37,548 nucleotides of DNA, from NCBI GenBank assembly GCA_964432895.1, contig CAYSPN010000440.1:1-37548 (forward strand), read 5' to 3'. The notes beneath the pieces were generated by a model, which made no database searches, was not told the origin of the DNA, and saw only the letters and a list, made by a program, of their open reading frames with translations. This document shows, piece by piece, positions 6,643 through 29,232 of this stretch (within the stretch, counting starts at the first letter, position 1; every line of letters begins with the position of its first letter). The position numbers were made by a program, and so were the translations under genes. This stretch comes from an uncultured Candidatus Kuenenia sp. (GTDB lineage: Bacteria > Planctomycetota > Planctomycetia > Pirellulales > UBA1268).

Positions 6643-7895
6643 TCAGAGGCTGTGGATGTCGATCACGGGCAGCTCGTCGGGCGACGCCTGAAAGATTGCC
6701 CGGTCGTCATCGACCTGCACGAGCTCTCCCCAGTCGGTCAGCGGGCCGCGGGCGGGAGAGACGGGCGCTGGTTCAAGCGGTTCGCCGGGGTGTGTAAGAC
6801 TTTTCCGGATCGGCCCTGGCTCCGTGATGAACGCGATCAGCCGGATGTCGCCGCCACACCCCGGACATTGCAGCGGAAACTCCTCCCCCACCCGCGCCAT
6901 CAGTTTCGCCCACGCAATACGCGACGTATCGTGCGAGCGGGCCTTTTGATTCACGTCACAGCAGCCTCCCGTGGCGTGGTCGTCGCGCGCATGCTCGCCC
7001 GTCGCGACATCGCCCCGCTTGCCGACATTCCCGATGGCGAGTGCCGTCACGGCCCGCCTGAGCTTGTGATTCGGTGCAAACACCCCGTGATACCGGTGCC
7101 GGTGCTTCCGCGGCGGGGGCACGAGGTCAGCGAGCCGGTCGAGGAACTCAAATGGGGAGAGCTCGACGACGCCGTTGGCGCCCGATTGGGTGGACTTCCG
7201 CCCGCGCCCCGGGTCGACCCAATTGGCCGCTTTGTGCCGCGGCAGCACGTAGCGGACGCGAGCGATGCGGCCATCTTCACGGCGCCTCACGGAGAGCCGT
7301 TCCAGCGAGAAGGGCGGCCGGGCGCAGTATCTCAGCAGGTGCTTGAGGGGCTGACACTCGACACGCAGATGGGGACGAACGAGCGTCATCCGGACGCATG
7401 CGTCCACCGAAAACCCACTGTTCTCTCAATCGCGCATGTCGGCGGCCGCATCGGCGGCGAGGAGCCGCTGCATGCGGAACCACCGCACGACACGACGGCG
7501 CACCTTCCCGGTGAGCGCGGCCAGATCCGCCTGGGTGATCGCCCGAGTCGGCAACTGTCTGAGGCCGGCGGCTTCGCCATCGCGCCGCGGGCGGAGAGAA
7601 TCCGGCGGCCCGTCAACGGTCGGCAGGAAGACGCCGTCGGTCGCTTGAGGCTCGCATGTGCACGTGGTGATTGATCGCCGATCCGAAGCGGTGCAGAAAG
7701 GACACGGCACCGAGTCGCGGGCGAGCCGTGCTCGGCCTTTCACCGTCTCGGGTCAAGCCCGCCGCAATACAACGCAGCCGCTCTACTCCAGAGATGAAGC
7801 CCCTCGTGAGGGCTGCGACCACGCTTTGGCGGTCAGCGAGAAAGTAGCGTAACCGCTTAGGGGGGGGCCACGTGCCGACAGGGCAGCGGAACGAC
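6643..7895 (-). pseudogene. IS91-family transposase pseudogene
   Basis: Recognisable pieces: ..PVGTWPPPKRLRYFLADRQSVVAALTRGF..GAVSFLHRFGSAINHHVH (HUH motif), then a frameshift near 7655. It continues ..ATDGVFLP..RLLAADAAADMRD-TGA(7426-7428)-ENSGFSVDACVRM..HLLRYCARPPFSLERL..RKHRHRYHGVFAPN..EEFPLQCPGCGGDIRLIAFITE..VIDIHSL*. ORFs 7426..7743 and 6643..7407 share one frame. The N-terminal zinc-binding region is absent. A G8 run lies at 7860-7867. Confidence 0.8.
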
Positions 7896-13014: not shown

Positions 13015-13548
13015 TCATGAGGTGGAACCGCTGGCCGACAGCCGCTCCTTGCGGCCGATGCAGGCCTCGAGGACGTACCGGATCCGCTGCAGCGATTTGT
13101 AGACCGCCTCGACGGTGCGGCTGAGCCGTTCGGCAATGGCCGGCACGGACTCATCGTCGAAGTAGTAGCCGCGGACAAGGCTTTGCTGGTCGGCCGGTAA
13201 CTGGTCGAGGCACTCGCGAAGGTGCTCCCGCCGCGCGTCGAGCTGCGGCGCGATCTCGATTCGCCGGGCCTCGAGCATTGCCACGAGATCTTCACGGATA
13301 AACCGCTTCCGCCGCCCCTCGGTGCGGAGGAACATCCGGGCCTCGTTGAGGGCAAACCGGCAGGCCCACGGGACGAACGGCCGATCGGGGTCGTATTGGT
13401 CGATCGCCTTCCAAAGGGACAGCGCCGTCTCCTGGAGGATGTCGCGGGCGTCGGCCACGTTCGGCACGATCGCCATCGCGTAGCGGAGGATCTCTTGCTC
13501 CGACTGGAGAAACAGCCGCATGAACTGCTCATGCGAGAGGGGAGACAT
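13015..13548 (-). CDS. ECF-type RNA polymerase sigma-70 factor
   Basis: Frame of ORF 13015..13632; start at ATG 13548. Region 2 is ..ILRYAMAIVPNVADARDILQETALSLWKAIDQYDPDRPFVPWACRFALNEARMF. Region 4 is ..LDQLPADQQSLVRGYYFDDESVPAIAERLSRTVEAVYKSLQRIR. Confidence 0.9.
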   Translation of the reverse strand: MSPLSHEQFMRLFLQSEQEILRYAMAIVPNVADARDILQETALSLWKAIDQYDPDRPFVPWACRFALNEARMFLRTEGRRKRFIREDLVAMLEARRIEIAPQLDARREHLRECLDQLPADQQSLVRGYYFDDESVPAIAERLSRTVEAVYKSLQRIRYVLEACIGRKERLSASGSTS

Positions 13549-13702: not shown

Positions 13703-13723
13703 AGGGACGACGGCCATTGAGGG

Positions 13724-14454: not shown

Positions 14455-15512
14455 GGCAACGTGCCATCTCCACTCGCACATTGTCCCAGACTTCGCAGGA
14501 CGGTCGGCGTGACGTCATCCCTGAGAAAGTGCACGGAGCCATCCGCCATCACAAACTGCGCACCGCCGAAGTGGAAGCTGCCAAAGCCGTACGAAAAGGT
14601 GAGCCCGTTGAAGCAATTGTCCGTCACCGGATCGCATGACACATTCAAGGAATTCGTCGCGACCGCGGCATTCGCGAGTCCGCCATTTCCACTGGTTAAG
14701 GCTGAAGCCCAGGTGAATTCCCCGGCCCCACCCCCCCCGCCGGTCCAGTTCCACCCTGATGCCAGCTGTGAGTACCGGGTCTCCCCGAGGAGAAAAGCTT
14801 TGCTTGAGCCGTCAGTGATGTGGGCCAAACGGGTCTTGGAATTGAGGAACATCACGCCACCGGCGGATAAGGGCTTAAACCCGCGGCCGCGGCAGGGTTT
14901 GTCGTTGTTCGGTGTTACGGGGCCCCAGGCGGCCAGATCATCGCTGAAGCCCGGGCAGTTCAGAGTTGTTCCAGGGTTTGGCCCTCCCCCCATCACGGCT
15001 ATATAGTTCGTTCCCGCATAGGGGCCATCCAGGCCGAGTGTGCCTGAAGTCAGCGAGAAATGCGGACTTGACGGACAGAGAAAGCTATCGTTTCGTCTTT
15101 TCTGTGGCCCGGCATTCGCACCGGCTCGCCCCGCTTCGGTGTTGAATGCTCCGGCGAATGTTCCAGAGAGCGTAAACGAATCATAACGAGCCTGATCCTC
15201 AAGATGCGGCAGGATCAGGACCTGCCACGGTGGTCCATCAGGCTGCTTAAAGTAGGCATAGGCTCCCGGTGTTCCCGAGGCGGGGCGGGTGACGACAGCA
15301 GGGGGAAATGTGCGTTTCCCATCGACATAGTTGAGCACCGCGAGAGAAAGCTGCTTGAGCTTGTTGGTGCACGCCACTCGTCTTGCCGACTCCCGAGCCG
15401 ATTGCACCGCTGGAAGCAGAAGACCGACCAACACCCCGATGATCGCAATCACCACGAGCAGCTCAACGAGGGTGAAGCCACGAGCCCGCTGAAATCGATA
15501 TGCGGTAACCAT
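14451..15512 (-). CDS. DUF1559 protein with a prepilin-type N-terminal cleavage/methylation domain
   Basis: ORF track, 353 aa. Motifs: RGFTLVELLVVIAIIGVLVGLLLPAVQSARESARR..C.NKLKQLSLAVLNY, and C-terminal FGSFHFGGAQFVMADGSVHFL. Confidence 0.9.
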   Translation of the reverse strand: MVTAYRFQRARGFTLVELLVVIAIIGVLVGLLLPAVQSARESARRVACTNKLKQLSLAVLNYVDGKRTFPPAVVTRPASGTPGAYAYFKQPDGPPWQVLILPHLEDQARYDSFTLSGTFAGAFNTEAGRAGANAGPQKRRNDSFLCPSSPHFSLTSGTLGLDGPYAGTNYIAVMGGGPNPGTTLNCPGFSDDLAAWGPVTPNNDKPCRGRGFKPLSAGGVMFLNSKTRLAHITDGSSKAFLLGETRYSQLASGWNWTGGGGGAGEFTWASALTSGNGGLANAAVATNSLNVSCDPVTDNCFNGLTFSYGFGSFHFGGAQFVMADGSVHFLRDDVTPTVLRSLGQCASGDGTLP

Positions 15513-15562
15513 GATTGCCCTCCCGAGGGATCACCGTCTGGGTAGATGTGAAGACCTCAACG

Positions 15563-15613
15563 GAGTTCTATGCCGGTCCTACGATCGTTTGGACAACTTT
15601 TTTTAGAAAGCCC
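15563..15613 (-). promoter_or_regulatory. F1 module copy D (most diverged) upstream of the DUF1559 gene
   Basis: Plus strand reads agttCTATGCCGgtcctacgatcGtTTGGACaacttttttt.. On the coding strand TCCAAA-n17-TAGAAC, with the hexamer 52 nt upstream of ATG 15512. Confidence 0.4.
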
Positions 15614-15729
15614 ACCCCCAGCAGCACCGGACCCGGAAAAACTCCAGAAATCACGGGGTTTCGGCTTTACCGCACCGCCCACACCCGACTATCCCCGATA
15701 TCCATGGCCACATCCCAGTTGCGGGCGGG

Positions 15730-17394
15730 CTACGGCTTCTGCGCCGCGTCGGGCTGCCGTCGTTTCGCCGGGGCCGCCTCCGGCTGCGCCGCCGGAGGCC
15801 GCGGATACCGCACGACCTCGACGTCGTTCTGCTGCGGCGGGCCCGGCCGGCTGCGGCCCGTCGTGATGAGCTGCTCGAGGAGCGCCTGCATCTCGGCGAC
15901 CCGCTCGGGCTGCTCGCCGGCGAGGTTCTTCCGCTCGCCGAGGTCGGAGGCGAGGTCGTAGAGCTGCACGTTCTGCGCCGGGTCGTCTCCCCCCGTCCAG
16001 CCCCCGGACCCGGGGGCGGCGATGTACTTCCAGGAGCCGAGCCGCACGCCCGGCACACCCCGCATCGAGCAGCTCACGGCATGCTCGCGGACGGGCGTCA
16101 TGCTCCCCTTCAGGAGCGGCACGAGGCTGAAGCTGTCTTCGCCGGCATCGTCGGGGAGCGGCGTGCCGAGGATCTCGGCGCAGGTCGCCATGAGATCGGC
16201 CTGGTGCACGAGCTGATCGCAGACGCTTTCGGGCTTCACAACGCCGGGCCAGCGGGCGATGAACGCGACGCGATGCCCTCCCTCCCAGACGTCCGACTTG
16301 TAGCCCCGCAGCGGGCCGCTCGGGTAGTGGCCGCGGGCCTCGAGTTTCTTGGCCCCGACGTAGGGGGCAAAGCCGTTGTCACTCGTGAATACGACGAGCG
16401 TGTCGTCGGCGACGCCGGCGGCATCGAGGGCCGCGAGCACGTCACCGACGACCGCGTCGGTCTCCATGATGAGGTCGGCGCAGGCGTTGTCGAGGCCGCT
16501 CTTTCCCCGCCACGGCTCGTTCACCGCCAGGGGCGTGTGCGGCGAGGTAAGCGGCATGTAGAGGAGGAACGGCTGCTTCGCGCGACCGCGGTCGGCGATG
16601 AACTCGACCGCCCGGTCGCGGAGCGTCGGCAGGACGGCCTCCAGCTTCCAGTCGGGCAGCGCCGGCCCCTGGGCGCTTGCGCGATGATCTTGCAAGTCGG
16701 CCGCGGGCAGGAACTCCGAGGGGATGCCCACCGTGCGATCGTCGGCGATGAAGCAGTACGGAGGCCAGTTGGGCACGTCGGTGCCGAAGTAGACATCGAA
16801 GCCTCGGGTCGTCGGCCCGCCGGCGATCGGGCGTGAAAAGATCCGTTGCCAGGCGGCCTGCTGCTCGGCCGTGGCGGTCGGGCCGGCGGCATCGGCGGCA
16901 ACACCCTTCGGCTGCGCGACGGCCTGGGTCGACCGTCTCTCATCGGGCGTGAGGGACCAGTCCCAGCCGAGATGCCACTTGCCGATGCAGGCTGTGCGGT
17001 AGCCGTGCTGGCGGGCGAGCGTGCCGAGCGTGACGCGGTCGGCAGCGATGAGGGGATCGCCCCACGTGCCGACGATGCCGCTCTGGAGCCGCGTCCGCCA
17101 GTGGTAGCGGCCGGTGAGCAACGCGTAGCGGGAGGGCGAGCAGACACCCGAGGAGGAGTGGGCGTCGCTGAACCGCATCCCCTGCGCGGCGAGCCGGTCG
17201 AGGTGCGGCGTGGGGATCTTGCCGCGGTCAGGGTTGTAACAGTGCACGTCGCCGTAGCCGAGGTCGTCGGCGTAGATCACGACGATGTTCGGAGTCGCGG
17301 CCGCCGCAGACGGGGCGTGCAGCCCCGCCGCGAACGCGAGAAGCCAAGTCAGCGGGTACAGGCGGAGGCAGGCGTTTTGCATGAGATTTCGCAT
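15730..17394 (-). CDS. Sulfatase (Cys-type), secreted
   Basis: ORF track, 554 aa. Signal peptide, then NIVVIYADDLGYGD, VCSPSRYALLTGR, GKWHLG, FTSDNG. Confidence 0.9.
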   Translation of the reverse strand: MRNLMQNACLRLYPLTWLLAFAAGLHAPSAAAATPNIVVIYADDLGYGDVHCYNPDRGKIPTPHLDRLAAQGMRFSDAHSSSGVCSPSRYALLTGRYHWRTRLQSGIVGTWGDPLIAADRVTLGTLARQHGYRTACIGKWHLGWDWSLTPDERRSTQAVAQPKGVAADAAGPTATAEQQAAWQRIFSRPIAGGPTTRGFDVYFGTDVPNWPPYCFIADDRTVGIPSEFLPAADLQDHRASAQGPALPDWKLEAVLPTLRDRAVEFIADRGRAKQPFLLYMPLTSPHTPLAVNEPWRGKSGLDNACADLIMETDAVVGDVLAALDAAGVADDTLVVFTSDNGFAPYVGAKKLEARGHYPSGPLRGYKSDVWEGGHRVAFIARWPGVVKPESVCDQLVHQADLMATCAEILGTPLPDDAGEDSFSLVPLLKGSMTPVREHAVSCSMRGVPGVRLGSWKYIAAPGSGGWTGGDDPAQNVQLYDLASDLGERKNLAGEQPERVAEMQALLEQLITTGRSRPGPPQQNDVEVVRYPRPPAAQPEAAPAKRRQPDAAQKP

Positions 17395-17407
17395 GGGCCA
17401 GTGGTTG

Positions 17408-19009
17408 CTACTTGCCAGGTTTCTTCGCCGGGCCGGCGGTGCGCAGCTGCACGGAGTGCGCTTTCATATAGTCGGCGCGGCGCTGATTGATGGCGATTGA
17501 ATTGGCCGCGGTTTTCGTGCGCAACTCGTCCAGGATGGCGGTGTGTGTCGGATCGGTGGCAAGGTTGTGTTGCTCAGCGGGATAGGCCTCGAGGTCGAAA
17601 AGCATCTCGAACTCGGCATTGCGACCTTGGAAATCGACGTCTGTTTCCTTGAAGCTCATCACGCCGTCATACATCCGAATGTATTTCCAGCGACTGGTCC
17701 GCATGCCTTCCTGAAAAGGATTGTCCCGCATGGTGAAGAGGCTTTCAAGGAAGAGCTCATCGCGCCAGGAGGTCTCTTTGCCTTCCACGAGCGGACGCAG
17801 ACTGTGCCCTTCCATTTCCGCGGGAGCCTCAATGCCGGCGTAGTCGAGAATGGTGCGGGTGTAGTCAAGGCTGGAGACGATCTGATCAAGCTGGCGACCG
17901 CGTTGCTCCTGCGGGGTTCGCGGATCGTGGATGATGCAGGGGATCTTCGTCGCGAGGTCGAGCAACAAGCCTTTTCCGCCCATCCCATATTCGCCCATGA
18001 GCAGCCCGTGGTCGCTGCCGAAAAGGATGACGGTGTTTTGATCGAGGCCGCGTCTCTTCAGGTCCGCGAGCAGGCCGCCGATGACGTGATCCAGGCCGGT
18101 GATCGTCTGGTAGTAGCGGACGTGATGCTCGCGACAGGCAGAAAGATCATAGTTGTAGCTGTAGGTCTGCCGCCGCCCCTTGTCCTGGTCCAACATGAAC
18201 TTCGGGATGAAGCGGTAGGGGTCGGTGCAGGTATCGGCTGGCAGGGAAATGTCGAGATCGCGATAGAGCGTGTCGTAGAAAGGGCTGCCTTTGAGCTTGG
18301 GGTTCTCGTTGGCCGGGCGAGTCATCCCAATCCACTGGGGATAGGCGGTAAACATGGATGTCGTCTGCGAGCCATGCGGCACATTGAAGCTGACGGAGAG
18401 GCAGAAGGGCTTCTCTTTCGGCGCGGTGTCGAGGAACTGTGCCATTCCCTCGCCCATGATGAAGGTGACGACGTCCTCCTTGGCGCCGTGATAGGGCGTG
18501 GTGCTGGGTGAGTCGTGATCCTTGGGCAGAAACTTGGTCCAGCCATCGTGCCCATACCAAAAGTCAAACTTATCCTGCGCCCGGCCCTTGAAGGTGTAGT
18601 ACTCAACGCCAAACTTCCCGATGAAGCCTGTGTGGTACCCGGCTTTGCGGAGCAGTGCGGGATAGGTCTGCTCCCACTGCGGCTCCGTGAGGGTGTACGA
18701 CGAACTGAAGCCCACGCCATGCACCCGCTCCGGCATTCCGGTAAAAAACGACACCCGGCTCGGCGCACACACCGGCGTGGCGATGTAAGCGTTTGTGAAA
18801 CGCACCGAATCGCGCATCAGCGAATCGAGGTTGGGTGTTTTCACAGAGGGATGCCCCATGGCGCCGAGCGTGTTGTCTCGCTGGTCGTCGGTGAGGAGGA
18901 AGATGATGTTCGGCCGGGGTGAAGATTCCGCTGCGTCGGCAAGACGGGCGCCGGCCAGCAGTGCCAGCGATACTGCAGAAAGCAAGCAGGAGCGGAAGCG
19001 GTTTTTCAT
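17408..19009 (-). CDS. Sulfatase (Cys-type), secreted
   Basis: Frame of ORF 17408..19087 (GTG). ATG 19009 gives MKNRFRSCLLSAVSLALLAGARLADA. Motifs: NIIFLLTDDQ, VCAPSRVSFFTG, GSDHG. Confidence 0.9.
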   Translation of the reverse strand: MKNRFRSCLLSAVSLALLAGARLADAAESSPRPNIIFLLTDDQRDNTLGAMGHPSVKTPNLDSLMRDSVRFTNAYIATPVCAPSRVSFFTGMPERVHGVGFSSSYTLTEPQWEQTYPALLRKAGYHTGFIGKFGVEYYTFKGRAQDKFDFWYGHDGWTKFLPKDHDSPSTTPYHGAKEDVVTFIMGEGMAQFLDTAPKEKPFCLSVSFNVPHGSQTTSMFTAYPQWIGMTRPANENPKLKGSPFYDTLYRDLDISLPADTCTDPYRFIPKFMLDQDKGRRQTYSYNYDLSACREHHVRYYQTITGLDHVIGGLLADLKRRGLDQNTVILFGSDHGLLMGEYGMGGKGLLLDLATKIPCIIHDPRTPQEQRGRQLDQIVSSLDYTRTILDYAGIEAPAEMEGHSLRPLVEGKETSWRDELFLESLFTMRDNPFQEGMRTSRWKYIRMYDGVMSFKETDVDFQGRNAEFEMLFDLEAYPAEQHNLATDPTHTAILDELRTKTAANSIAINQRRADYMKAHSVQLRTAGPAKKPGK

Positions 19010-19088
19010 ATTCCGGTCCATCCGGGATTTCCGTGGGGAGAGCCGTAATTTGCCTGGCGTTGTACGAAAGCCTTGCTTACGAGTCACC

Positions 19089-20966
19089 TCATGGCTTCTT
19101 CGGTGCCGTGATCTTGTCCCAAGGCTCTACGTTCGTGCGGGCTGCATAGGCATCCCACATGGCAGTCATCCGCTTGACGCGGCCGGGCTCGAGTCCGCTG
19201 AGATCATTCTGCTCCGAACGGTCCTTCGATAGGTCGTAGAGTTCCCAGCGGTCGCCGTGGACGGCCACGAGTTTCCAATCGCCCTCCCGAACGGCCTTGT
19301 TGCCCTCGTGTTCCCAGTAGATCGCCTCGCGGTCGATCGCGCCGCCTGTAAAGAGCGGGGCCAAGCTTTTTCCTTCGAGCGGCGTCTTGTCGGCGGGATA
19401 CGACGCGCCGGCCAGATCAACGGCTGTGGCCATGATGTCGATGAGGTGGCCAGGCGTTCGTTCGAGCCGGCCGGGCTCCCTGATGCCACGAGGCCAGTGG
19501 ACGATGAGTGGCGTCGCGATACCCCCTTCATGGACCCAGTGCTTGTACATGCGGAACGGCGTGTTCGACACGGTCGCCCAGGCGGGGCCATACGCGACAA
19601 ACGTGTCGGCCGGGCCGGCCATCACGCCCTTGCCTTCCCGCAGCGGATAGCCGTCGCGGGTCTGCTTCTGTCGCACCTTCACGCCGATGAAGTCTGCGGG
19701 GAGTGGCTGCAGGCTTGGCATGTCGGCGCGAGCAGGGCCGATCCCGCCGCGACCGATCGTCTCGGCACAGCCGCCGTTGTCTTGCAGGTAGCAGACGAGC
19801 GTGTTGTCGGCCTGGCCAGCATCCTCGACCGCCTTCATGATCCTGCCGATGCCCTGGTCCATGCTATCGACCATCGCGGCATAGACCTCCATGTTTCGCT
19901 GGTCCCAGGCCAACCACTCGTCTTCTTCGCCGAGTTTCGGCGGCCACGGCCAGAGCGTCGTCTCGGCCGCGGTCACCACGCCTTCGGTCAGCATTTTCGC
20001 ATAGCGAGCCTTGCGGATGGCCTCGTACCCGGCGGCGTAGCGGCCTGCGTATTTCACGATGTCGCGGTCGCGGGCGTGCATCGGCCAGTGGGCGGCCGTG
20101 TAGGCCACGTACAGAAAGAAGGGCTTCGTCGCGTCGTGCTCCGTGATGAACCGCACGGCGTGGTCGCTGATCGCGTCGGTGTAGTAGTAGTCGGCCGCCG
20201 GATAATCGGGGTCGGCGAAGGCCGACATCATTCGGTTGTCGCGGACAAGCGTGGCGGGGTCAAAGAAGTTGCCGCCGCCGATGATCGTGCCGTAGAAACG
20301 CATGAAGCCCCGCTGCAGCGGCCAGTTGCGTTTCTCCGCGTCGCTCTTGGGCCTGATCGCCCCCGTGACGTGCCACTTGCCCACGGCATAGCTCGCGTAG
20401 CCGGCCGGCGCGACCACCTCGGCGATCGTGGCACAGCGGTCGTTGAGGTCACCGCGGTAGCCGGGAAATTCCCGATCGGTCTCCATGTGGCCGACGCCCG
20501 CTTGGTGAGGATAAAGTCCCGTCAGCAGGCTCGCCCGAGTCGGGCAGCAGCGAGCGGTGTTGTAAAACTGCGTGAACTGCAGGCCGCCCCGCGCCAGCCG
20601 GTCGAGGTTCGGCGTCTCGATCTCGCTGCCATAGCAGCCGACATCGGAAAACCCCATGTCGTCGGAAAGGATAACGACGATGTTGGGGCGGGACGGAGCG
20701 GCCGGCTCCGCCGCGATCGACCTCGCAGGGCCCGCGAACAGCCCGATGATGACGCCAGCCCCATGGAGCGACCACCGTGCCCAGGCTGAATCGTTCATGC
20801 GAAACCCCATGCACGTACTCCCAGGGAGCACTTTTCGGACAATCGCCAAGGTTTGCACGACAACAACAGCCACAAGCGCGATCACCAACGCGCAGCAACA
20901 CGGGCTCGAGAGCGTATCTCGCAGTCCTGATGGAGGCTGTGGTGGCTGACGAAGTGTCGTTGCCAT
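19089..20966 (-). CDS. Arylsulfatase (Cys-type); start uncertain (ATG 20966, or ATG 20798 giving a paralog-like signal peptide)
   Basis: ORF track, 625 aa. Motifs: NIVVILSDDMGFSDVGCYG, CCPTRASLLTGLYPHQAGVGHM, GKWH. The C terminus WELYDLSKDRSEQNDL..NVEPWD ends 10 aa later. The F1-B hexamer lies 66 nt upstream of ATG 20966. Confidence 0.9.
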   Translation of the reverse strand: MATTLRQPPQPPSGLRDTLSSPCCCALVIALVAVVVVQTLAIVRKVLPGSTCMGFRMNDSAWARWSLHGAGVIIGLFAGPARSIAAEPAAPSRPNIVVILSDDMGFSDVGCYGSEIETPNLDRLARGGLQFTQFYNTARCCPTRASLLTGLYPHQAGVGHMETDREFPGYRGDLNDRCATIAEVVAPAGYASYAVGKWHVTGAIRPKSDAEKRNWPLQRGFMRFYGTIIGGGNFFDPATLVRDNRMMSAFADPDYPAADYYYTDAISDHAVRFITEHDATKPFFLYVAYTAAHWPMHARDRDIVKYAGRYAAGYEAIRKARYAKMLTEGVVTAAETTLWPWPPKLGEEDEWLAWDQRNMEVYAAMVDSMDQGIGRIMKAVEDAGQADNTLVCYLQDNGGCAETIGRGGIGPARADMPSLQPLPADFIGVKVRQKQTRDGYPLREGKGVMAGPADTFVAYGPAWATVSNTPFRMYKHWVHEGGIATPLIVHWPRGIREPGRLERTPGHLIDIMATAVDLAGASYPADKTPLEGKSLAPLFTGGAIDREAIYWEHEGNKAVREGDWKLVAVHGDRWELYDLSKDRSEQNDLSGLEPGRVKRMTAMWDAYAARTNVEPWDKITAPKKP

Positions 20967-21030
20967 CTGGTTAGAAACTACTCATTCGAGAGGGGAGAAG
21001 CGCGGGGCTTCTCTTCGATCGAGGTCGCGG

Positions 21031-21081
21031 AGATTCTATGCCGGTGACCTACCGGATTGGACACTTCTGGCGGAAACGGCC
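21031..21081 (-). promoter_or_regulatory. F1 module copy B upstream of the three-sulfatase operon
   Basis: The coding strand reads GGCCGTTTCCGCCAGAAGTGTCCAATCCG-gtaggtcac-CGGCATAGAATC, i.e. TCCAAT-n17-TAGAAT. Confidence 0.5.
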
Positions 21082-21197
21082 CCCTTTGCGACCGCGAACG
21101 GATCGGGATCCATTGTTTGGGGTTCGCGCGCGTCTGAACGGCGGGTTATGCGACGCACAACTGCAGTCCCCGGCGTCCGGGTGCCTGTTCCGGGCCC

Positions 21198-21734
21198 TTA
21201 CGGCCGCGGGGCCGCCCAGCGCGCGGCATTCTCGATCACCGTGAGATTCTCGGGCTGGCGGTAGATCGGATAGGTCTCGTGGCCAGGGCGAAAATAGAAA
21301 ACGCGGCCTTTGCCCACGTTCCAGGTGCAGCCGCTTCGAAACCGCTCGCCCTTGTCCCACCGTTCCTCAAAGACGACGGCATCCGGTGCGGGAACATGAA
21401 ATGGTTCGTCATACATTTCAGTCTTCGGGATGTCCCATTGAGCCGGCAGCCCCTTGGCGATCGGGTGCTCGGGCAAGAGAGTACGGACATGGCTCGGTTC
21501 GCCGTCGGTGGCTCCACCAAACGATTCGTCATCGTTGAAACCTTGTGGAGTCTGTCGAGCGCGTTTTTACCACAGGTCCACAAACATGACCTTGAAAACA
21601 AGCCCTTCAACGGGTGGTTGGTACTTCGAACGGCTGGAGCCCGGCGGGGAGTATAGTCGGTCCAGATCAGCAACGATCACTTCGTTGACGTGCTGGTATT
21701 TGTGTTCAGTTCGATACCCGAGAGGATGAATCAT
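21198..21734 (-). pseudogene. ThuA-like (trehalose-utilisation family) relic: in-frame TAA and a short N terminus
   Basis: The C-terminal 92 aa (ORF 21198..21476) read EHPIAKGLPAQWDIPKTEMYDEPFHVPAPDAVVFEERWDKGERFRSGCTWNVGKGRVFYFRPGHETYPIY..IENAARWAA, which is ThuA-like. The same frame continues upstream through TAA at 21567-21569 to ATG 21734. The total of ~179 codons is shorter than a ThuA domain. Confidence 0.55.
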
Positions 21735-24138
21735 GGTCCGCGCTGTTTGGGGAATCGCTGTTTGGGGAATCTTGCTCGGCTGCGTTTGGTCGGTGCCGCT
21801 GATAGCTGCCGAACGTCCCAACGTCGTCGTGATTCTGGCCGACGACATGGGGTTTGCGGATCTGGGATGCTATGGCGGGGAAATCGAGACGCCCCACGTG
21901 GACCAGTTGGCGGCCGGTGGCCTGCGGTTTACACAGTTCTACAACACGGCTCGCTGCTGCCCCACACGTGCCGCCCTTTTGACAGGCTTGTACTCGCATC
22001 AAGCGGGTATTGGCCACATGACGGTTGATGATGGGATTCCCGCCTACCGGGGATACTTGAATCAGCGCTGCGTGACGATTGCCGAAGCGGTTCGTCCCAC
22101 GGGTTACGCGACATGTGCGGTTGGCAAGTGGCATGTCGGGTCGGCGCCCGGGCATTGGCCGCTGGACCGCGGGTTCGATCGGTTTTGGGGAACGCCGTCT
22201 GGCGGAGGGGTCTACTTCAAAGACACCCTGCAGCTTCGCAAGGAAATCTTCTTTACCAGCGGCAACCAGCGAATTGACCCTCCCGACGATCTCTATGTGA
22301 CCGACACCTTCACCGATCACGCTTTGGAATTCATCGAGGAAGCGGTTACGCAGACGCAACGGCCTTTCTTCCTTTATCTCCCGCATATCGCGCCGCACTG
22401 GCCATTGCAGGCGAAGGCTGCGGATATCGCCAAGTATGAAGGACGTTATCGGCTGGGGTGGGACGCGCTCCGGCAGGCGCGGTTGGACAAGCAGGTTCGG
22501 TTGGGGATCGTGCCTGCTGGCACACAGCTCAGTCCGCGGGACGCGAAAGCCCGCCCATGGGAAGAGGTCGGCGAGCAGGAGCGGGAGGAACTGGCGCGGC
22601 GGATGAGCATCTACGCGGCGCAGATCGACTGCATTGATAAGAATGTAGGCAGACTGGTGGCGAAGTTGAAAGCGCTGGGGGTTCTGGAGAACACGTTGAT
22701 CATGTTCTTGTCCGACAACGGATGTTCCGCGGAAGGAGGGCCCGGGGGATTCAGCCGCGGGACCGAGGGCGCGGAGATTGGTACAGGACTTTCTTATGCC
22801 AGCGCGGGATTAGAGTGGGTCAATGCGTGCAACACACCCTATCGGCGATACAAGAGCGACACGCATAAGGGAGGTGTTCGCACGCCCCTGATCGTGCACT
22901 GGCCGGCAGGAGTCGCGGCGCGAGGCCAGTTGAGGCAGGACGTGGGACATGTGGTCGACCTCATGCCTACGATTGTGCAGGCGACCGGTACCGGTTATCC
23001 GCAAACACGGAATGAAAACGAGGTTCTGCCGCTCGAAGGGATCAGCTTGCTACCAGCGTTTGCCGGAGAATCATTGCCGGAGCGATGGCTGTTCTGGGAG
23101 CACGAAGGGAACAAAGCCGTGCGGCACGGCAACTGGAAGGCGGTGGCGAAGGGGCCGCAACCGTGGCAGCTGTATGATCTCCAGCACGATTCGTCGGAAC
23201 TAGAGAATCTGGCGGCGCTGCAGCCGCAGCGTCTCGCTGGCTTGGTCGAGGGGTGGGCGGAGCGGTGTGGCGTGTGGGAGTGGGACGATGTGCTGGCGCA
23301 CCGCCAGCTTGCCACGTCCCGTGGCAAGCGTCGCGCGACGCATGAGACGGATCCGGGACAATTCTCGCCAGAAGCGTCCAATCCGGCCGGTTCGCGGCAT
23401 AGTACCTGTGTGCTTTCGTTCCCAGAAAGCCAAACATTGATCGCGAAACAGGCAATCATGAAATCCACCGTCGGAATCCTTCTTGTCTTTCTGTCGTCAG
23501 CGGTTCACGCCACTGAGAATTTGCCGGAAATGAAGCCGCTGCTCGGCGAGCGGGGCGACGTTATTTTCTCCGAGTCCTTCGACGGCCCAGACCCAGTTCC
23601 GCTTCGGGTCATCCGGAACACGATGTCCGAGCTCGCCGAGGGCGGGGTGCGTCTGGGGACGAAAATCGAACGACCGGAGTGGGGTCACGGCGGGATCGCG
23701 TTTGTCTACGGGAAGGACCGAGCCGCGCTCGAGGATTTCATTCTTGAAGCGGACTTCCGCTGGGATGTCGGGCAGAGTTTTGGCTTCCAGTTCCCCAGGG
23801 TGCGCGAGGCAGGAGAACCTGTGCACGGGGTTGCCCCCGAGTTCTTCATCCGATTCCGCCGACCCAAGGATGTGACCCAGCCGGGCTCCTGGGATATCAG
23901 AGACAACGCGCCAAAAGCCACCGTAGGCGAACACAAGGCCACCTTCCCGCCGGGCCAGTGGCACCGGGTCATGATCGAGGTGCGGAATGACGAAGTGGCG
24001 GTGCAACTCAGCAACGGCCAGTCCCTGCGAGGGAAGTGCAACAAAGCCAGCGCTCCCAAAATATCTCCACAGATCGGCACGGGCCCAGACGGTAGTGAGG
24101 CCGTCGTGGACACCATAACAATCTCCGCCTTCCGCTGA
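21733..24138 (+). CDS. Arylsulfatase (Cys-type) ORF that continues in frame through an intergenic-looking segment into a DUF1080/LamG-like gene (801-aa ORF)
   Basis: ORF track, 801 aa. The first ~520 aa form a complete sulfatase paralogous to 19089..20966: NVVVILADDMGFADLGCYG, CCPTRAALLTGLYSHQAGIGHM, ..WQLYDLQHDSSELENL..CGVWEWDD. Then come ~40 codons spanning a hairpin and the F1-C module, followed by a signal-peptide-like MKSTVGILLVFLSSAVHA. Confidence 0.8.
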   Translation: MVRAVWGIAVWGILLGCVWSVPLIAAERPNVVVILADDMGFADLGCYGGEIETPHVDQLAAGGLRFTQFYNTARCCPTRAALLTGLYSHQAGIGHMTVDDGIPAYRGYLNQRCVTIAEAVRPTGYATCAVGKWHVGSAPGHWPLDRGFDRFWGTPSGGGVYFKDTLQLRKEIFFTSGNQRIDPPDDLYVTDTFTDHALEFIEEAVTQTQRPFFLYLPHIAPHWPLQAKAADIAKYEGRYRLGWDALRQARLDKQVRLGIVPAGTQLSPRDAKARPWEEVGEQEREELARRMSIYAAQIDCIDKNVGRLVAKLKALGVLENTLIMFLSDNGCSAEGGPGGFSRGTEGAEIGTGLSYASAGLEWVNACNTPYRRYKSDTHKGGVRTPLIVHWPAGVAARGQLRQDVGHVVDLMPTIVQATGTGYPQTRNENEVLPLEGISLLPAFAGESLPERWLFWEHEGNKAVRHGNWKAVAKGPQPWQLYDLQHDSSELENLAALQPQRLAGLVEGWAERCGVWEWDDVLAHRQLATSRGKRRATHETDPGQFSPEASNPAGSRHSTCVLSFPESQTLIAKQAIMKSTVGILLVFLSSAVHATENLPEMKPLLGERGDVIFSESFDGPDPVPLRVIRNTMSELAEGGVRLGTKIERPEWGHGGIAFVYGKDRAALEDFILEADFRWDVGQSFGFQFPRVREAGEPVHGVAPEFFIRFRRPKDVTQPGSWDIRDNAPKATVGEHKATFPPGQWHRVMIEVRNDEVAVQLSNGQSLRGKCNKASAPKISPQIGTGPDGSEAVVDTITISAFR
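21742..21771 (+). repeat. Perfect 15-bp tandem duplication in the sulfatase signal-peptide region
   Basis: gctgtttggggaatc occurs twice in tandem and encodes the repeated AVWGI in MVRAVWGIAVWGILLG. Confidence 0.9.
23307..23329 (+). terminator. Perfect 10-bp stem hairpin just after the conserved sulfatase C terminus
   Basis: GCTTGCCACG-tcc-CGTGGCAAGC, followed by the palindrome GTCGCGCGAC (23330-23339). There is no T tract, so assigning it as a terminator is tentative. Confidence 0.3.
23356..23406 (+). promoter_or_regulatory. F1 module copy C, inside the 801-aa ORF and upstream of the internal ATG 23458
   Basis: Plus strand reads GGACAATTCTCGCCAGAAGCGTCCAATCCG-gccggttcg-CGGCATAGTACC, i.e. 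TCCAAT-n17-TAGTAC. The hexamer lies 52 nt upstream of ATG 23458. Confidence 0.5.
23458..24138 (+). CDS. Secreted concanavalin-A-like (DUF1080/LamG-type) protein, if translated from the internal start
   Basis: MKSTVGILLVFLSSAVHATENL.. is a signal peptide. The body (..DFILEADFRWDVGQSFGFQF..GQWHRVMIEVRNDEVAVQLSNGQSLRG..) has the beta-sandwich pattern of DUF1080-like proteins. It is preceded by F1-C. Confidence 0.5.
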   Translation: MKSTVGILLVFLSSAVHATENLPEMKPLLGERGDVIFSESFDGPDPVPLRVIRNTMSELAEGGVRLGTKIERPEWGHGGIAFVYGKDRAALEDFILEADFRWDVGQSFGFQFPRVREAGEPVHGVAPEFFIRFRRPKDVTQPGSWDIRDNAPKATVGEHKATFPPGQWHRVMIEVRNDEVAVQLSNGQSLRGKCNKASAPKISPQIGTGPDGSEAVVDTITISAFR

Positions 24139-24211
24139 GTATTTTCCGCTGAGTACACTGAGGCGATGATGCATTCGTCGTGACTTTCATTCGCTCCAGG
24201 TCTGCTGCTGC

Positions 24212-27200
24212 ATGTCGAGCCACATCGTGCTACATCGATCGCGGCCGTTACGCACGGTGGTTCTCTCCGCCGCTGCGCTTCTTTTAGGCGGCCCGATTGT
24301 GTCGTGTCCTTCGGCCATCGCCGGCGAATCCCCCGATGCTGTGGCCCTCTTCGAGTCGAAATTACGGCCGCTCCTCGCGCACCGCTGCGCCGGGTGCCAT
24401 GGGGCGGGCACGGTGGAGGGTGAGTTCGACATTTCGAATCGCGAGAAACTGCTCGCAGGCGGGGCCAGCGGCCCCGCCGTCGTGCCCGGCAAGGCGATGG
24501 AAAGCCTGATGTACCGGCTGGCCGCACGGCTCGAGGAACCGCACATGCCGGAGGAGGGAGACGCGCTGACCTCGGAGCAGCTCGGCTGGCTCGCCGAATG
24601 GATCAACGGTGGAGCCCCGTTCGACAAGCCGCTGATCGACGACTCCGACCGCGGGCCATGGACAGATCGCGTGGTGAAGCCGGAGGCCCGGGACTACTGG
24701 GCGTTCCGCCCGCTCGCAGTCGTCAGCCCGCCCGAGCCGGCCGACCCCAACGGCTGGTGTCGCAATCCGATCGACCACTTCATCCTTGCGAAGCTCGAGT
24801 CAGCCGGCCTCGCACCGTCGCCCGAGGCCCCGCCGCAGACGCTCTTCCGCCGGCTCTCGTTTGACCTCACCGGGTTGCCGGCGACGCCACAGGAGATTGC
24901 CGACTTCTGTGATTCGTGTTCAAAGCAGGCCGGCGTCGCGTATGAACAGGCAGTCGACGATCTCCTATCGCGGGCGTCGTTTGGCGAGCGGTGGGCCCAG
25001 CACTGGCTCGATGTCGCCCGCTTCGCCGAGAGCTTCGGCTACGAACAGGACTACGACCGTCCACATGCCCATCACTACCGCGACTTCGTGATCAAGGCCT
25101 TCAACGATGACCTCCCCTACGACACGTTTCTGCGGTGGCAACTCGCCGGCGACGAGTTTGACCCCGACAATCTCGACGCGCAGAAGGCGACAGGCTTCCT
25201 CGCCGCCGGCGCATTCCCGACACAGCTGACGGAGAATGAGTTTGAGAGCGCCCGCTCCACCGAACTCGACGACATGGTCGGCACGGTCGGCACCGCGATG
25301 CTCGGAGCGACGATCGGCTGTGCCCGCTGCCACGACCACAAGTTCGATCCGTTCCCGCAGGCCGACTATTACCGCATGGCGGCGACGTTTACGACGACGA
25401 TCCGCTCAAACGTCGATCTGCCGGTGGATCCCGCCAAGGACCGCGCGATCCTCGCGGCGTGGGAGGCCCGACGGCTCGCGGCCGTGAAGGCCCGGGAAGC
25501 CTACGAGCGTGACGAACTGCCAAAGCGGTTCGACGCGTTCGTGGCTGCGTGGCAGCCAACCGCAAACGACGAGACGCGGCCATGGCGACTGGGCAAGCTC
25601 GTGTCGGCGGAAACCCAGGCGGGCCGAAAGTTCGCCCCGCTTGACGATGGCTCGCTCCTGGCCGTCGGCGTGGCCGCCGATCAAGACAGTTACACCTTCG
25701 TGATCGATGCACCGCTCGAGACGGTCGCCTCGCTGCGCATCGACGCGATTGCCGATGCGTCGTTGCCGCGCGGCGGGCCGGGCCGTGCTGCCAACGGCAA
25801 CTTCGCCCTCTCGAACCTCACCGTCTCCGCCTCGCCCATTCCGTCCAAGGGCAAGCCGGCGGCGGAGCCTTCGTCGATCAAGCTCGTGAATCCGCGGGCG
25901 GATTTCTCGCAGACGTCGCCTTCGCTGCTGGTCGAGCATGCGATCGATGCGAATGGTTCGACGGCCTGGGCGGTCGACCCGCAGTTCGGCGCGTCACATG
26001 CGGCGGTATTCGACTTCGAGAAGCCGGTGCAGCATGGTGGCGGCGTACGGCTGACGGTGAAACTCGAGTTCATGAACAATGCAAAGCATTCGATCGGCCG
26101 GCCGCGGATCTCTTTCGCTGATGCCCCGGGCGAGAAGGCGGAGCCGGTCACTGCGGCTCGCGACCCGGTGGATGCCGATGGGGAGCCGCGGCGCCGCGTG
26201 ACCGAAATCCTCGTAAAACCCGCCGCGCAGCGGACGGATGGGGAGAAGTCAGAACTCGCCGCGCTCCACCGAATGTTTGACGCAGGCTGGCGGGCTCTCG
26301 ACACGGTCGTCAGGCGGCTCGACGCCGAAAAGCCTGCCCCGACGCTCGTGAAGGTGCTTGTGGCCAGTGAGAACGTGCCGAAGATCCCGCACCACGCCGA
26401 CGAGCGCGGCTACCCGCACTTTTACCCCGAGACCCACTTCTTGCGACGTGGTGACGTCAACCAGAAGGAAGGCGTGGCGACGACGGGGTTTCTCCAAGTG
26501 CTCATGCGGCATCCCGACGGGGCGGCCCACTGGATCGAACCTGTTCCCGAGGGGGCGACGACGAGCCACCGCCGCGCCGCGCTGGCCCGCTGGATCACCG
26601 ACGTCGACCATGGAGCCGGCTACGTCGCCGCCCGCGTCATCGTCAATCGGCTCTGGCAGCATCATTTCGGGGAGGGGCTCGTTGCCACACCGAACGATTT
26701 TGGCAGGCAGGCCGATCCGCCGTCGCATCCCGAACTCCTTGATTGGCTCGCCAGCGAGTTGATCCGTAGCGGCTGGAGGCTGAAATCGATCCACCGCCTG
26801 ATGGTGACAAGCGCGGCCTACCGGCAGTCGAGTGCGATCGATCCGGTGAAGGCCGGGGTCGACCCGGGCAACCGTCTCGTGTGGCGGTTCAACCGCCGCC
26901 GCCTGGAAGGGGAAGCGATCCGTGACGCGCTCCTTTCGATGTCAGGCGGGCTCGATCCCGCGCTCTATGGCCGAGCCGGACGCGACGAGGCGAGCCCGAG
27001 GCGGAGCCTCTACCTTGAACGAAAGCGAAGCAAGCTGCCGCTCTTCCTGCGCACGTTCGACTCACCCGACTTCGTGTCGGGCGTGGCGAAGCGGTCGGTG
27101 ACGACGACCGCGCCGCAGGCGCTCGCGATGATGAACTCACCGCAGGCCCGCGTGTGGGCCGAACGGTTGGCCAAGGAACTCATAGCCGAGGCCGGATCGA

Positions 27201-27463
27201 TCCCAGAGGTGCCACCGTTGCCCGGCCAGCCGCAGGATTCCGCTGCAGCCGTCTCCGCCCCGCAGGCGAAGTTGATCCGCGCGGCCTACGCCACGGCGTT
27301 CGGCCGCGTCCCCACGCCGACCGAACTCCACGACGCGACGCTGTTCATCGCGTCACAGCAGGCGGCCTACGCCGCCGCGGGAAGCCACGACAGCCCGACC
27401 GCCGCGGTCACTGACTTTTGCCAGGTGCTCATGGGGCTCAACGAGACGATGCACATCGAGTGA
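24212..27463 (+). CDS. PSCyt1/DUF1549(PSCyt2)/DUF1553(PSD1) planctomycete cytochrome-motif protein
   Basis: ORF track, 1083 aa. Signal peptide. Motifs: LFESKLRPLLAHRCAGCHG, NPIDHFILAKLESAGLAPSPEA..FRRLSFDLTGLPATPQEI, CARCHDHKFDPFPQADYY, C-terminal RRSLYLERKRSKLPLFLRTFDSPD..TTTAPQALAMMN. Confidence 0.9.
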   Translation: MSSHIVLHRSRPLRTVVLSAAALLLGGPIVSCPSAIAGESPDAVALFESKLRPLLAHRCAGCHGAGTVEGEFDISNREKLLAGGASGPAVVPGKAMESLMYRLAARLEEPHMPEEGDALTSEQLGWLAEWINGGAPFDKPLIDDSDRGPWTDRVVKPEARDYWAFRPLAVVSPPEPADPNGWCRNPIDHFILAKLESAGLAPSPEAPPQTLFRRLSFDLTGLPATPQEIADFCDSCSKQAGVAYEQAVDDLLSRASFGERWAQHWLDVARFAESFGYEQDYDRPHAHHYRDFVIKAFNDDLPYDTFLRWQLAGDEFDPDNLDAQKATGFLAAGAFPTQLTENEFESARSTELDDMVGTVGTAMLGATIGCARCHDHKFDPFPQADYYRMAATFTTTIRSNVDLPVDPAKDRAILAAWEARRLAAVKAREAYERDELPKRFDAFVAAWQPTANDETRPWRLGKLVSAETQAGRKFAPLDDGSLLAVGVAADQDSYTFVIDAPLETVASLRIDAIADASLPRGGPGRAANGNFALSNLTVSASPIPSKGKPAAEPSSIKLVNPRADFSQTSPSLLVEHAIDANGSTAWAVDPQFGASHAAVFDFEKPVQHGGGVRLTVKLEFMNNAKHSIGRPRISFADAPGEKAEPVTAARDPVDADGEPRRRVTEILVKPAAQRTDGEKSELAALHRMFDAGWRALDTVVRRLDAEKPAPTLVKVLVASENVPKIPHHADERGYPHFYPETHFLRRGDVNQKEGVATTGFLQVLMRHPDGAAHWIEPVPEGATTSHRRAALARWITDVDHGAGYVAARVIVNRLWQHHFGEGLVATPNDFGRQADPPSHPELLDWLASELIRSGWRLKSIHRLMVTSAAYRQSSAIDPVKAGVDPGNRLVWRFNRRRLEGEAIRDALLSMSGGLDPALYGRAGRDEASPRRSLYLERKRSKLPLFLRTFDSPDFVSGVAKRSVTTTAPQALAMMNSPQARVWAERLAKELIAEAGSIPEVPPLPGQPQDSAAAVSAPQAKLIRAAYATAFGRVPTPTELHDATLFIASQQAAYAAAGSHDSPTAAVTDFCQVLMGLNETMHIE

Positions 27464-27506
27464 GTCGGGCTCGAGCCCCGCCAACAGACACGTACGTGAG
27501 GAACCC

Positions 27507-28991
27507 ATGACAGATCCGAGTACGATCCGCCGACTTATGTCCGACCTGTCGCCCATCCTGCCACGCCGCGAGATGCTCAAGCGGGCCGGAGCCGGGTTCG
27601 GAATTCTGGGACTCGCGGGGCTCCTCCAGAACGAGGCGAGTGCCGCCGCCACGATGCAGGGCGGCGGCGGGCTCGCCGACAATCCACTGGGACCTCGCCC
27701 GAGTCATTTTCCGGGGAAGGCGAAGAGCGTGATCTGGCTCTTCATCAACGGGGGGCCAAGCCACGTCGACACATTCGACTACAAGCCTGAACTCGAGAAG
27801 CGGGACGGTCAGGAACTCCCCGGCTTCGACAAGAACACCGGCTTCTTCGCGGGTGCCGTGGGCGGGCTCATGAAGAGCCCCTTCGCATTCCATCAGCACG
27901 GCCAGAGCGGAGCCTGGGTGTCGAGCCTGTTCCCCCAGATGGCGAAGCACGTCGACAAGATGGCCTTCCTGAAGAGCTGCTGGACCGACTCCAACAACCA
28001 CGCGCCGGCGCTTCTCAAGATCAACACGGGTGTCACGCGGATGGGTTTCCCGTGCACCGGATCGTGGGTCACCTACGGCCTCGGCAGCGAGAATCGCGAT
28101 CTGCCCGGCTTCGTCGTCATGTACGACACGAAGGGCCGCGGGCTCCCCAAGGGCTACGCGCAGAACTGGTCAGCGGGCTTTCTACCGGGCGTTTTCCAGG
28201 GGACAGGCATCGACACGGCCGGCACACCGATCCCCAACCTTATTCGCACACAGGGCATGACCGACGCCCAGCAGCGGGCACAGTTTGACCTCGCTGCCAG
28301 GCTCAACGGCCACCATCTCGCCTCCACCGGGGACGCGTCGCTCCAGGCTCGAATCGAGAGCTTTGAACTCGCCTATCGGATGCAGATGTCGGCACCCGAA
28401 GCGCTCGAACTTACGAGTGAAACGAAGGAAACACATGACCTGTATGGGCTCGACGACCCCACCTGTGGCCACTTCGCCAAACAGTGCCTGATCGCGCGAA
28501 GACTCGTCGAGCGGGGCGTACGATTCATCCAGATCTACTCCGGCGGCGAGGAGAACCAGAAGAGCTGGGACGGCCACTCAGACATCCAGGGCAACCACTC
28601 CGGGTTCGCGGCCGAGACCGACCGGCCGATCGCGGCGCTGCTCGAGGATCTATCCCGCCGTGGCTTGCTCGACGAGACACTCGTCGTCTGGGGAGGCGAG
28701 TTCGGCCGGCTGCCGATCGCGCAGAAGAGCGCGAAGCCGGGCCGCGACCACAACCCGCACGCCTTCACCGTCTGGATGGCGGGCGGCGGCGTGAAGGGGG
28801 GCGTGACCCACGGCGCCACCGACGAGGTTGGCTTCAAGGCCGTCGAGGATCGCGTGAGCGTCAATGACCTGCATGCGACGATCCTGCACCTGCTCGGCAT
28901 GGACCATCGGCAACTGACCTACCGATTCAACGGCCGTGATTTCCGACTGACTGACGTTGCCGGTGTCGTGGTGAACGACATCCTGGTCTGA
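27507..28991 (+). CDS. DUF1501 protein (sulfatase/alkaline-phosphatase-like fold) with a Tat signal
   Basis: ORF track, 494 aa. GAGGAA lies upstream of the ATG. Motifs: RREMLKRAGAGFGILGLAGLL, and GRDHNPHAFTVWMAGGGVKGGVTHGATDEVG. Confidence 0.9.
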   Translation: MTDPSTIRRLMSDLSPILPRREMLKRAGAGFGILGLAGLLQNEASAAATMQGGGGLADNPLGPRPSHFPGKAKSVIWLFINGGPSHVDTFDYKPELEKRDGQELPGFDKNTGFFAGAVGGLMKSPFAFHQHGQSGAWVSSLFPQMAKHVDKMAFLKSCWTDSNNHAPALLKINTGVTRMGFPCTGSWVTYGLGSENRDLPGFVVMYDTKGRGLPKGYAQNWSAGFLPGVFQGTGIDTAGTPIPNLIRTQGMTDAQQRAQFDLAARLNGHHLASTGDASLQARIESFELAYRMQMSAPEALELTSETKETHDLYGLDDPTCGHFAKQCLIARRLVERGVRFIQIYSGGEENQKSWDGHSDIQGNHSGFAAETDRPIAALLEDLSRRGLLDETLVVWGGEFGRLPIAQKSAKPGRDHNPHAFTVWMAGGGVKGGVTHGATDEVGFKAVEDRVSVNDLHATILHLLGMDHRQLTYRFNGRDFRLTDVAGVVVNDILV

Positions 28992-29232
28992 AAAGCCGAC
29001 TCATTCGCGAGCTGGCTCCGGCCCCGTCGTCTCCTTGAAACCGTAATGGAGTGTGATGCCGCTCCATCTCGGCCAGCAGAGCCGCGAGCAAAAGCCCTCA
29101 CGGAGTACACTGCTGATCGCTAGATCAGGATCCTATGACAGGATAGCGTTGTTCGCACATGGAGCGCTCGCCATGCTCGATCTCTCCAAGATCTTCTCGA
29201 TGCTCACGACGATCCCGGGGGAGTTCCTCTTC

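Follow-up and report, generated by a model that had tools for sequence, protein, structure and literature searches.

Pseudogene formation through frameshift, deletion or insertion sequence (IS) insertion is routine in bacteria, and in-frame internal initiation in Escherichia coli infB and clpB yields a long and a short product. Stop-codon loss that turns downstream DNA into a C-terminal extension has been documented in yeast and Drosophila, where the cases described are typically polymorphic (PMC4494051). We did not use PMC7671302 as a precedent, because its gene fusions come from deletion and not from stop loss. Here we analyzed a 37,548-nt stretch of DNA (the window; contig CAYSPN010000440.1 of the uncultured Candidatus Kuenenia sp. 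assembly GCA_964432895.1), in which an arylsulfatase gene and the DUF1080 gene downstream of it share one open reading frame (ORF) that runs from 21733 to 24138, 801 codons without a stop. We consider it about 85% probable that this is a recent stop-loss read-through ORF laid over two ancestral genes, that the allele is real, and that it probably represents early decay of a dispensable sulfatase.

We examined the domain content of the ORF. Pfam places a Sulfatase domain at residues 29-419, SGSH_C at 379-494 and PF06439 (DUF1080 / 3-keto-disaccharide hydrolase) at 664-763. The Sulfatase profile PF00884 matches with 200.5 bits (cut-off 25, E = 5e-59) over profile positions 1-300 of 301. The sulfatase translation contains the C/S-x-P-x-R motif ARCCPTRAALLTG and ILADDMGF, both aligned with the same motifs of the nearest solved structures, the arylsulfatases 7all (E = 3.7e-107) and 1hdh. 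The full-length profile match, the maturation motif and the N-terminal metal-binding DD together place the protein among the S1 (formylglycine-dependent) sulfatases. The DUF1080 part begins at ATG 23458 with a signal peptide, MKSTVGILLVFLSSAVHA. Taken alone, the 226-aa product from this ATG passes the PF06439 cut-off of 26.8 marginally with 27.4 bits, in a partial match to profile positions 45-146 of 187; within the 801-aa ORF the same domain scores 24.4 bits, under the cut-off. NCBI annotates the ortholog in genome G081, which belongs to another GTDB genus (g28), as a DUF1080 domain-containing protein (MCX7411862.1). An earlier note on this DNA, the original prediction, had described the 801-codon ORF and, within it, an internal start and signal peptide followed by a DUF1080 domain. 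Its features and coordinates are all present in the sequence, and translation and Pfam bear out the internal start with its signal peptide and domain.

We compared the ORF with its closest orthologs. A search with residues 440-801 recovered P0001, a 535-aa protein that is 94% identical over its full length and ends ..GKRRATD-stop. It is encoded on the contigs L013 (JGI, 30.7 kb) and L014 (Logan), which are collinear with window positions 21525-29037 at 93% nucleotide identity and on which DUF1080, PSCyt/DUF1553 and DUF1501 follow the sulfatase as separate genes. In the DNA alignment these relatives read GAT TAG where the window reads CAT GAG (23341-23346), and they carry one more G after 23354. 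The same TAG and extra G occur in L019, a contig of a Planctomycetia metagenome-assembled genome (MAG) of Lac Pavin; this contig is presumably identical with C28 of G081. The L013, L014 and L019/G081 loci are 93-95% identical to the window at the nucleotide level. Past the TAG of L013 and L019 the next in-frame TAG, inside CGGCATAGTA, lies 19 codons on, and DUF1080 is found in another frame. In the window, the missing spacer G shifts the TAG at 23400-23402 out of frame and sets ATG 23458 in frame. The TAG and the separate DUF1080 gene in L013, L014 and L019 thus sustain the central claim of the original prediction, that the sulfatase lost its stop and reads through formerly intergenic DNA into the next gene. 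From the orthologous sulfatases the ancestral stop is located at 23344-23346, which is 18 codons past the WEWDD motif and not about 10, as had been expected. Consistently, 14 more distant sulfatases end 11-22 residues past this motif with a basic tail homologous to ..HRQLATSRGKRRAT. By this alignment, the former intergenic DNA is the segment 23347-23457 only.

The two changes can be followed across haplotypes. TAG is present in L013, L014, L019, L045 and L046, and GAG in the window, L040, L041, L043, L044, L042 and L050. L045/L046 represents an intermediate haplotype with a short spacer but with TAG kept, so that a single stop codon stands between the two frames. The 1-nt spacer deletion thus occurs without stop loss, and the reverse was never seen among the haplotypes compared. 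In the spacer the other two frames contain stops, and the frame that joins sulfatase and DUF1080 is open in all GAG carriers. Of the explanations offered earlier, a chance open frame after stop loss is what the TAG/GAG and spacer indel comparison supports as having happened. The hairpin region upstream of the old stop is mosaic, being window-like in L045 and L013-like in L042, which suggests recombination, unless one of the changes arose more than once.

The haplotype comparison shows an ancestral state in which a secreted arylsulfatase gene ending in TAG and a secreted DUF1080 gene lay head to tail, 111 nt apart, the latter with its own promoter-like module (F1), start codon and signal peptide. 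A 1-nt deletion in the G run of the spacer probably came first and put both frames in register, and a T-to-G change at 23344 then turned TAG into GAG. Since the deletion-only haplotype L045/L046 is known, this order of events is the most economical one. With the stop lost, the sulfatase frame extends by 266 codons as far as the end of DUF1080, so that the ORF reaches 801 codons. We infer that a continuous transcript would yield a long protein in which sulfatase, linker and pre-DUF1080 are joined, and that DUF1080 would still be made separately from the F1 copy in the spacer (F1-C) and ATG 23458. Two overlapping products are therefore the likely expression outcome. In the long product the former signal peptide would be internal, with a hydrophobic core of only ~12 residues. 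It would not meet signal peptidase in the normal orientation, and it might either cross the translocon or else serve as a weak stop-transfer segment. The event would presumably be neutral to mildly harmful and would mark the onset of decay in a sulfatase that can be dispensed with, not the birth of a useful fusion.

Related populations carry the sulfatase in at least five other states. L042 and L050 (two assemblies) have gained one nucleotide in the G run at 22743, which frameshifts the gene; in L045/L046 its 5' half is deleted, and in L051-L057 it is absent. An IS91 transposase gene occupies its place upstream of DUF1080 in L059, and in L059-L063 homology to the window begins at 23382, inside F1. 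DUF1080 and the F1 module upstream of it are kept across the haplotypes with a broken or absent sulfatase. For the sulfatase, parsimony gives nonsynonymous/synonymous (N/S) counts of 9/19 for the branch that keeps the stop (L013+L019), 5/3 for the window branch and 9/3 for L042; pooled stop-loss and stop-keeping branches differ with a Fisher p of 0.018. Within the window clade the only sulfatase polymorphism is P211S, at a proline that is invariant in the outgroups. Further window-derived changes affect sites that are invariant in 14 homologs (Q303K, A363V, E379K, I382V and L520V), and a 9-nt deletion removes a conserved Trp. As judged from the alignments, none of the window-derived changes is clearly disabling. 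We also observed a 15-nt tandem duplication at 21741-21755, by which AVWGI stands twice in the signal peptide of the sulfatase (MVRAVWGIAVWGILL); the window clade, L042 and L050 share this duplication, and L013 and L019 lack it.

We next considered whether the joined frame is a sequencing or assembly artefact or an old fused gene. The reality of the GAG allele was judged from independent assemblies, of which seven carry it, five with an intact 801-aa ORF. L040 (JGI sample 3300037041) and L041 (Logan, SRR11848494) encode precisely the 801-aa protein of the window, and L043 (ENA ERZ27272074) and L044 (JGI 3300034284) encode a 2-aa variant. Over 2.7 kb, these four contigs share 99.7-99.9% identity with the window, yet they differ from it and from one another at 3-8 positions, so that they represent separate consensus sequences. 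L042 and L050, from two further samples, are 97.5% identical to the window and have GAG together with the short spacer. The stop-loss allele is genuine and segregates in natural populations. It could be argued that the true genome keeps the stop, or a frame shift between the genes, and that the 801-codon ORF exists in the consensus only: the MAG from which the window comes is fragmented, with 910 contigs, 77% completeness and 5% contamination, and replicated assembly errors mimicked a gene fusion in an earlier case given in PMC4494051. Identical GAG and spacer length in seven contigs from the JGI, ENA and Logan pipelines, with at least three distinguishable haplotypes, make this very improbable, and they also dispose of the sequencing indel that had been suggested as an explanation. 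Moreover, the coding indels between window and L013 measure 15 and 9 nt, and every indel that is not a multiple of three (1 nt and 14 nt) is confined to ancestral intergenic DNA, which random error would not give; the indel pattern is, on this comparison, one of natural divergence. Alternatively, an ancestral fused gene may have been split in the relatives by gain of TAG. With close relatives alone, parsimony at the TAG/GAG site gives no direction, and in L045/L046 the two parts are separated by one in-frame TAG. However, the outgroup sulfatases all end at the same basic tail, the DUF1080 homologs, including those of another phylum, stand alone and share this start and signal peptide, F1 lies upstream of DUF1080 also where the sulfatase is absent, and DUF1080 is in another frame in L013 and L019. 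These findings already contradict such a gene fission, the least credible of the readings considered here. The search with residues 440-801 (length window 0.55-1.75x, 440-1400 aa) found PF06439 in 0 of 98 homologs. We did not encounter sulfatase-DUF1080 as a natural multi-domain protein, and the closest orthologs are two genes. Orthologs with a continuous architecture and a conserved linker, which the original prediction had named as evidence that would overturn it, are thus missing among the 98 homologs, and the linker is not conserved as protein. It differs between haplotypes by the 1-nt indel, and substitutions relative to L013 fall evenly on the three codon positions of the spacer (3/2/3), the corresponding numbers being 19/9/55 for the sulfatase and 14/7/22 for DUF1080. 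Stand-alone DUF1080 homologs begin at the same ATG with a signal peptide in Planctomycetia contigs without an upstream sulfatase (L051-L057) and in Chthoniobacteraceae MAGs. From these comparisons, the 801-aa ORF is not one protein by descent.

A newly formed fusion could nevertheless be under selection. A useful sulfatase would then have acquired a concanavalin-like DUF1080 module for glycan binding or anchoring, and the allele would be spreading. It is indeed the consensus in at least five assemblies with an intact sulfatase frame, it sits on two flanking backgrounds, and the spacer frame is open in all carriers. Yet the linker derives from promoter and leader DNA and is conserved as DNA rather than as protein, the product would hold an uncleaved signal peptide at an internal position, one carrier lineage later frameshifted its sulfatase, N/S is higher and not lower on the stop-loss branches, and the architecture has no counterpart in the 98 homologs. 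We therefore regard a selected fusion as unlikely. In its boldest form, the window would record a new multi-domain enzyme at birth, a working sulfatase that either carries DUF1080 as a lectin-like module or is held at the membrane by the internal signal peptide, and the allele would be rising in freshwater planctomycete populations beside its stepwise intermediates; we give this version similarly little credence. Stop loss followed by early sulfatase decay remains our preferred explanation, and several observations weigh against it. N/S on the window branch alone is not significant (p = 0.22), and the sequence comparison supports decay of the window allele itself weakly. All five window-type assemblies have an unbroken sulfatase ORF with CCPTR kept, and purifying selection is seen over the whole divergence from L013, as the 19/9/55 distribution indicates. 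At the residue aligned to E379 the solved arylsulfatases 7all and 1hdh have Q, which weakens E379K as a damaging change. The stop-loss allele occurs on both the window-type and the L042-type flanking background, so that recombination or recurrence is needed, and this could hint that the allele is tolerated or favoured. Finally, the promoter activity that we ascribe to F1 is deduced from conservation and placement only. The coordinates of all features are collected in Table 1.

Table 1. Features of the sulfatase-DUF1080 locus and associated elements (window coordinates)
Feature	Position	Strand	Remarks
ECF sigma factor gene	13015..13548	-	Pfam Sigma70_r2 and r4_2; upstream F1-A at 13579-13628
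Arylsulfatase coding region, to the codon before the former stop	21733..23343	+	N-terminal signal peptide, Cys-type CCPTR motif; orthologous to 535-aa P0001
E379K, derived in the window clade	22867..22869	+	E in 14/14 close homologs
Perfect 10-bp hairpin with 3-nt loop	23307-23316/23320-23329	+	Inside the ancestral C-terminal tail coding sequence
Palindrome GTCGCGCGAC	23330-23339	+	Inside the ancestral coding tail, encodes part of RRAT; identical in all haplotypes
GAG at the ancestral TAG stop position	23344..23346	+	T-to-G change at 23344
Former intergenic spacer, now a 37-codon linker	23347..23457	+	Codon-position spread, frame-changing indel
1-nt deletion site in the spacer G run	23354..23355	+	Alignment to L013, L014 and L019
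F1-C module, promoter-like element of the DUF1080 unit	23356..23412	+	Two-block core GTCCAA-N13-CGGCATA at 23376-23401
DUF1080 (PF06439) gene with own ATG	23458..24138	+	Sec-type signal peptide 23458-23511; Pfam, orthologs; at present internal to the 801-codon ORF and in frame with it

Extracytoplasmic function (ECF) sigma factors can have autoregulated promoters with a small local regulon, and the textbook consensus of their promoters is GAAC...CGTC. F1-C matches 13578-13623 (85%) and 21036-21072 (84%) on the opposite strand, so each copy is oriented in the same way toward the genes that follow it. The fourth copy, at 15563-15613, has diverged but retains the two conserved blocks and their spacing. 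Copies A, B and D precede other genes, among them the ECF sigma gene. The motif GTCCAA-N13-CGGCATA occurs at 13584-13609(-), 15569-15594(-), 21037-21062(-) and 23376-23401(+). In the 3.75-Mb MAG of the window (G000) these four are the only exact occurrences, and G081 has five, all in the syntenic contig. The ECF sigma gene and DUF1080 are thus preceded by the same two-block motif in the same orientation and with fixed spacing, as would be expected if F1-C were an ECF-sigma-dependent promoter. Among 11 haplotypes only 1 of 47 sites varies in the module core (23366-23412), whereas the flanks have 24 variable sites in 121, distributed as 12/57 (tail), 5/19 and 7/45. In L051-L057, F1 is located in true intergenic DNA upstream of DUF1080, with CATAAT replacing CATAGT. 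An nhmmer search of the whole MAG gave three strong F1 copies only, which rules out a genome-wide dispersed repeat. Among 121 genomes, F1 was found in G081 only, apart from a weak match in G096 that is not followed by a sigma gene. A sigma-70 consensus scan detected no promoter, and a terminator scan returned one weak site at 23393-23410, about chance level. Rfam had no match up to E = 1 on either strand of 12900-24300, and a visual reading of the alignment revealed no consistent compensatory pairing between the conserved blocks among F1 copies. Together, placement and conservation fit F1 as the promoter of a small local ECF regulon, and the conserved F1 upstream of DUF1080 makes continued independent expression of DUF1080 likely. 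As with autoregulated ECF promoters, the motif stands before the ECF sigma gene itself and also before three or four transcription units nearby. F1 differs from them in that its copies share 46-80 nt at ~85% identity, beyond the needs of a promoter, and in that its motif is unlike GAAC...CGTC. Copy B retains a remnant of the opening codons of this sigma gene (20976-21081 versus 13523-13628, 75% identity). This remnant and the excess length of the copies suggest that the whole upstream segment of the sigma gene was duplicated, in this case to a position in front of a second sulfatase gene (19089..20966, minus strand). The second sulfatase and F1-B (window 19036-21114) form an insertion relative to G081, and L013 has AbiEii and another gene at this position.

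The hairpin at 23307-23329 and the palindrome at 23330-23339 exist as originally described. They had been taken for DNA that follows the gene; our alignment instead places both inside the ancestral coding tail, the hairpin 15 nt and the palindrome 5 nt upstream of the old stop. This tail (..LAHRQLATSRGKRRAT.) is homologous to the basic tails of the 14 outgroup sulfatases. Neither the sequence nor the terminator scan has a T run after the hairpin. We rejected a role as rho-independent terminator, as the hairpin precedes the stop of its own gene, lacks a T run and has an imperfect stem in the relatives. When aligned arms are counted by eye, pairing is 10/10 in the window clade only, 9/10 in L045, 7/10 in L013 and 6/10 in L019. 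RNA folding of 23290-23460 gives z = -3.5, with the hairpin as main contributor. The rise in pairing among haplotypes is stepwise and involves clustered changes in the 5' arm (23309, 23310 and 23316). Template-switch 'correction' of a quasi-palindrome would be expected to leave such a pattern, with the direction of change unproven.

The wider locus has a composite history. The window (contig C440, the longest of G000) is 93-97% identical to contig C28 of G081 over ~30 kb and only 65-72% identical to G004, a genome of the same genus. Two other long contigs of the MAG behave in the opposite way, with 83-92% identity to G004 and 68-79% to G081. The window contig is thus probably mis-binned, or else a recently transferred island. 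The DUF1080 gene (23457-24142) is 84-90% identical at the nucleotide level to genes of Chthoniobacteraceae (Verrucomicrobiota) MAGs (L016, L017 and L020-L024); the homology spans ATG to stop, and the flanks are unrelated. From these alignments it looks like a recent transfer of this single gene between phyla. In L024 the two ORFs directly upstream of DUF1080 are a putative ECF sigma / anti-sigma pair, as read from their N-termini. The 1167-nt contig L015 (Ga0164292_10272867) combines a Chthoniobacteraceae-like upstream flank, a DUF1080 gene 93% identical to that of the window and a downstream flank of planctomycete type; this contig is a probable assembly chimera, joined across the gene that both sides share, and was not used as evidence. 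Upstream of the sulfatase, ThuA at 21198-21524 is a 92-aa relic that is common to L040-L043, L050 and G081, whereas in L013 ThuA is complete (299 aa) and the region is longer by 565 bases. Synteny with G081 stops exactly at 13655/13656 (window 13656-15771), beside a solo copy of a 46-nt repeat. The same repeat (6428-6473) also follows an IS91-type transposase relic at 6643..7407. IS91-type elements seem, on this evidence, to land repeatedly beside or inside F1 modules.

Our findings bear on annotation. The 801-aa 'protein' should not be taken for a natural sulfatase-DUF1080 architecture or for evidence of domain co-occurrence. Indeed, the 90%-identity protein cluster of P0001 mixes 535-aa sulfatases, 226/242-aa DUF1080 proteins and 801-aa read-through ORFs, because the fusion clusters with both and thereby bridges two unrelated families. 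The locus also provides a population-level example of how adjacent genes for secreted proteins merge through two small mutations, with the intermediate still extant. In this sulfatase-rich planctomycete locus one sulfatase paralog has been lost in several ways, and the ECF-linked unit of DUF1080, PSCyt-DUF1553 and DUF1501 has been kept.

We compared the locus to the known systems introduced above. It shares with pseudogene formation in dispensable paralogs the lesions of its sister haplotypes (G-run frameshift, 5' deletion, loss and IS91) and the raised N/S on the stop-loss branches. It differs in that the sulfatase frame and catalytic motif are intact in the window, such that the enzyme may be functional, and in that stop loss lengthens the product, whereas most inactivating lesions shorten it. 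As in infB and clpB, an in-frame ATG (23458) lies within a long ORF, so two products could share DUF1080. The E. coli cases are conserved and functional; ours is an accident of juxtaposition, known here from sequence alone, and the short product would be exported via its own signal peptide, which is internal in the long one. With the stop-loss extensions described in PMC4494051, the window allele has in common a point change in a stop codon, recent origin, persisting polymorphism and the need to exclude artefacts. Unlike the extensions reported there, it swallows a complete neighbour gene with its own promoter-like element, start and signal peptide, it needed a prior 1-nt spacer deletion, and it comes from an uncultured planctomycete represented by metagenomes only. 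The event is an ordinary accident of gene decay or fusion and no surprise to a specialist. Less common is that a whole neighbour gene was taken in with its control elements, and that the intermediate haplotype is preserved alongside at least five other states of the gene.

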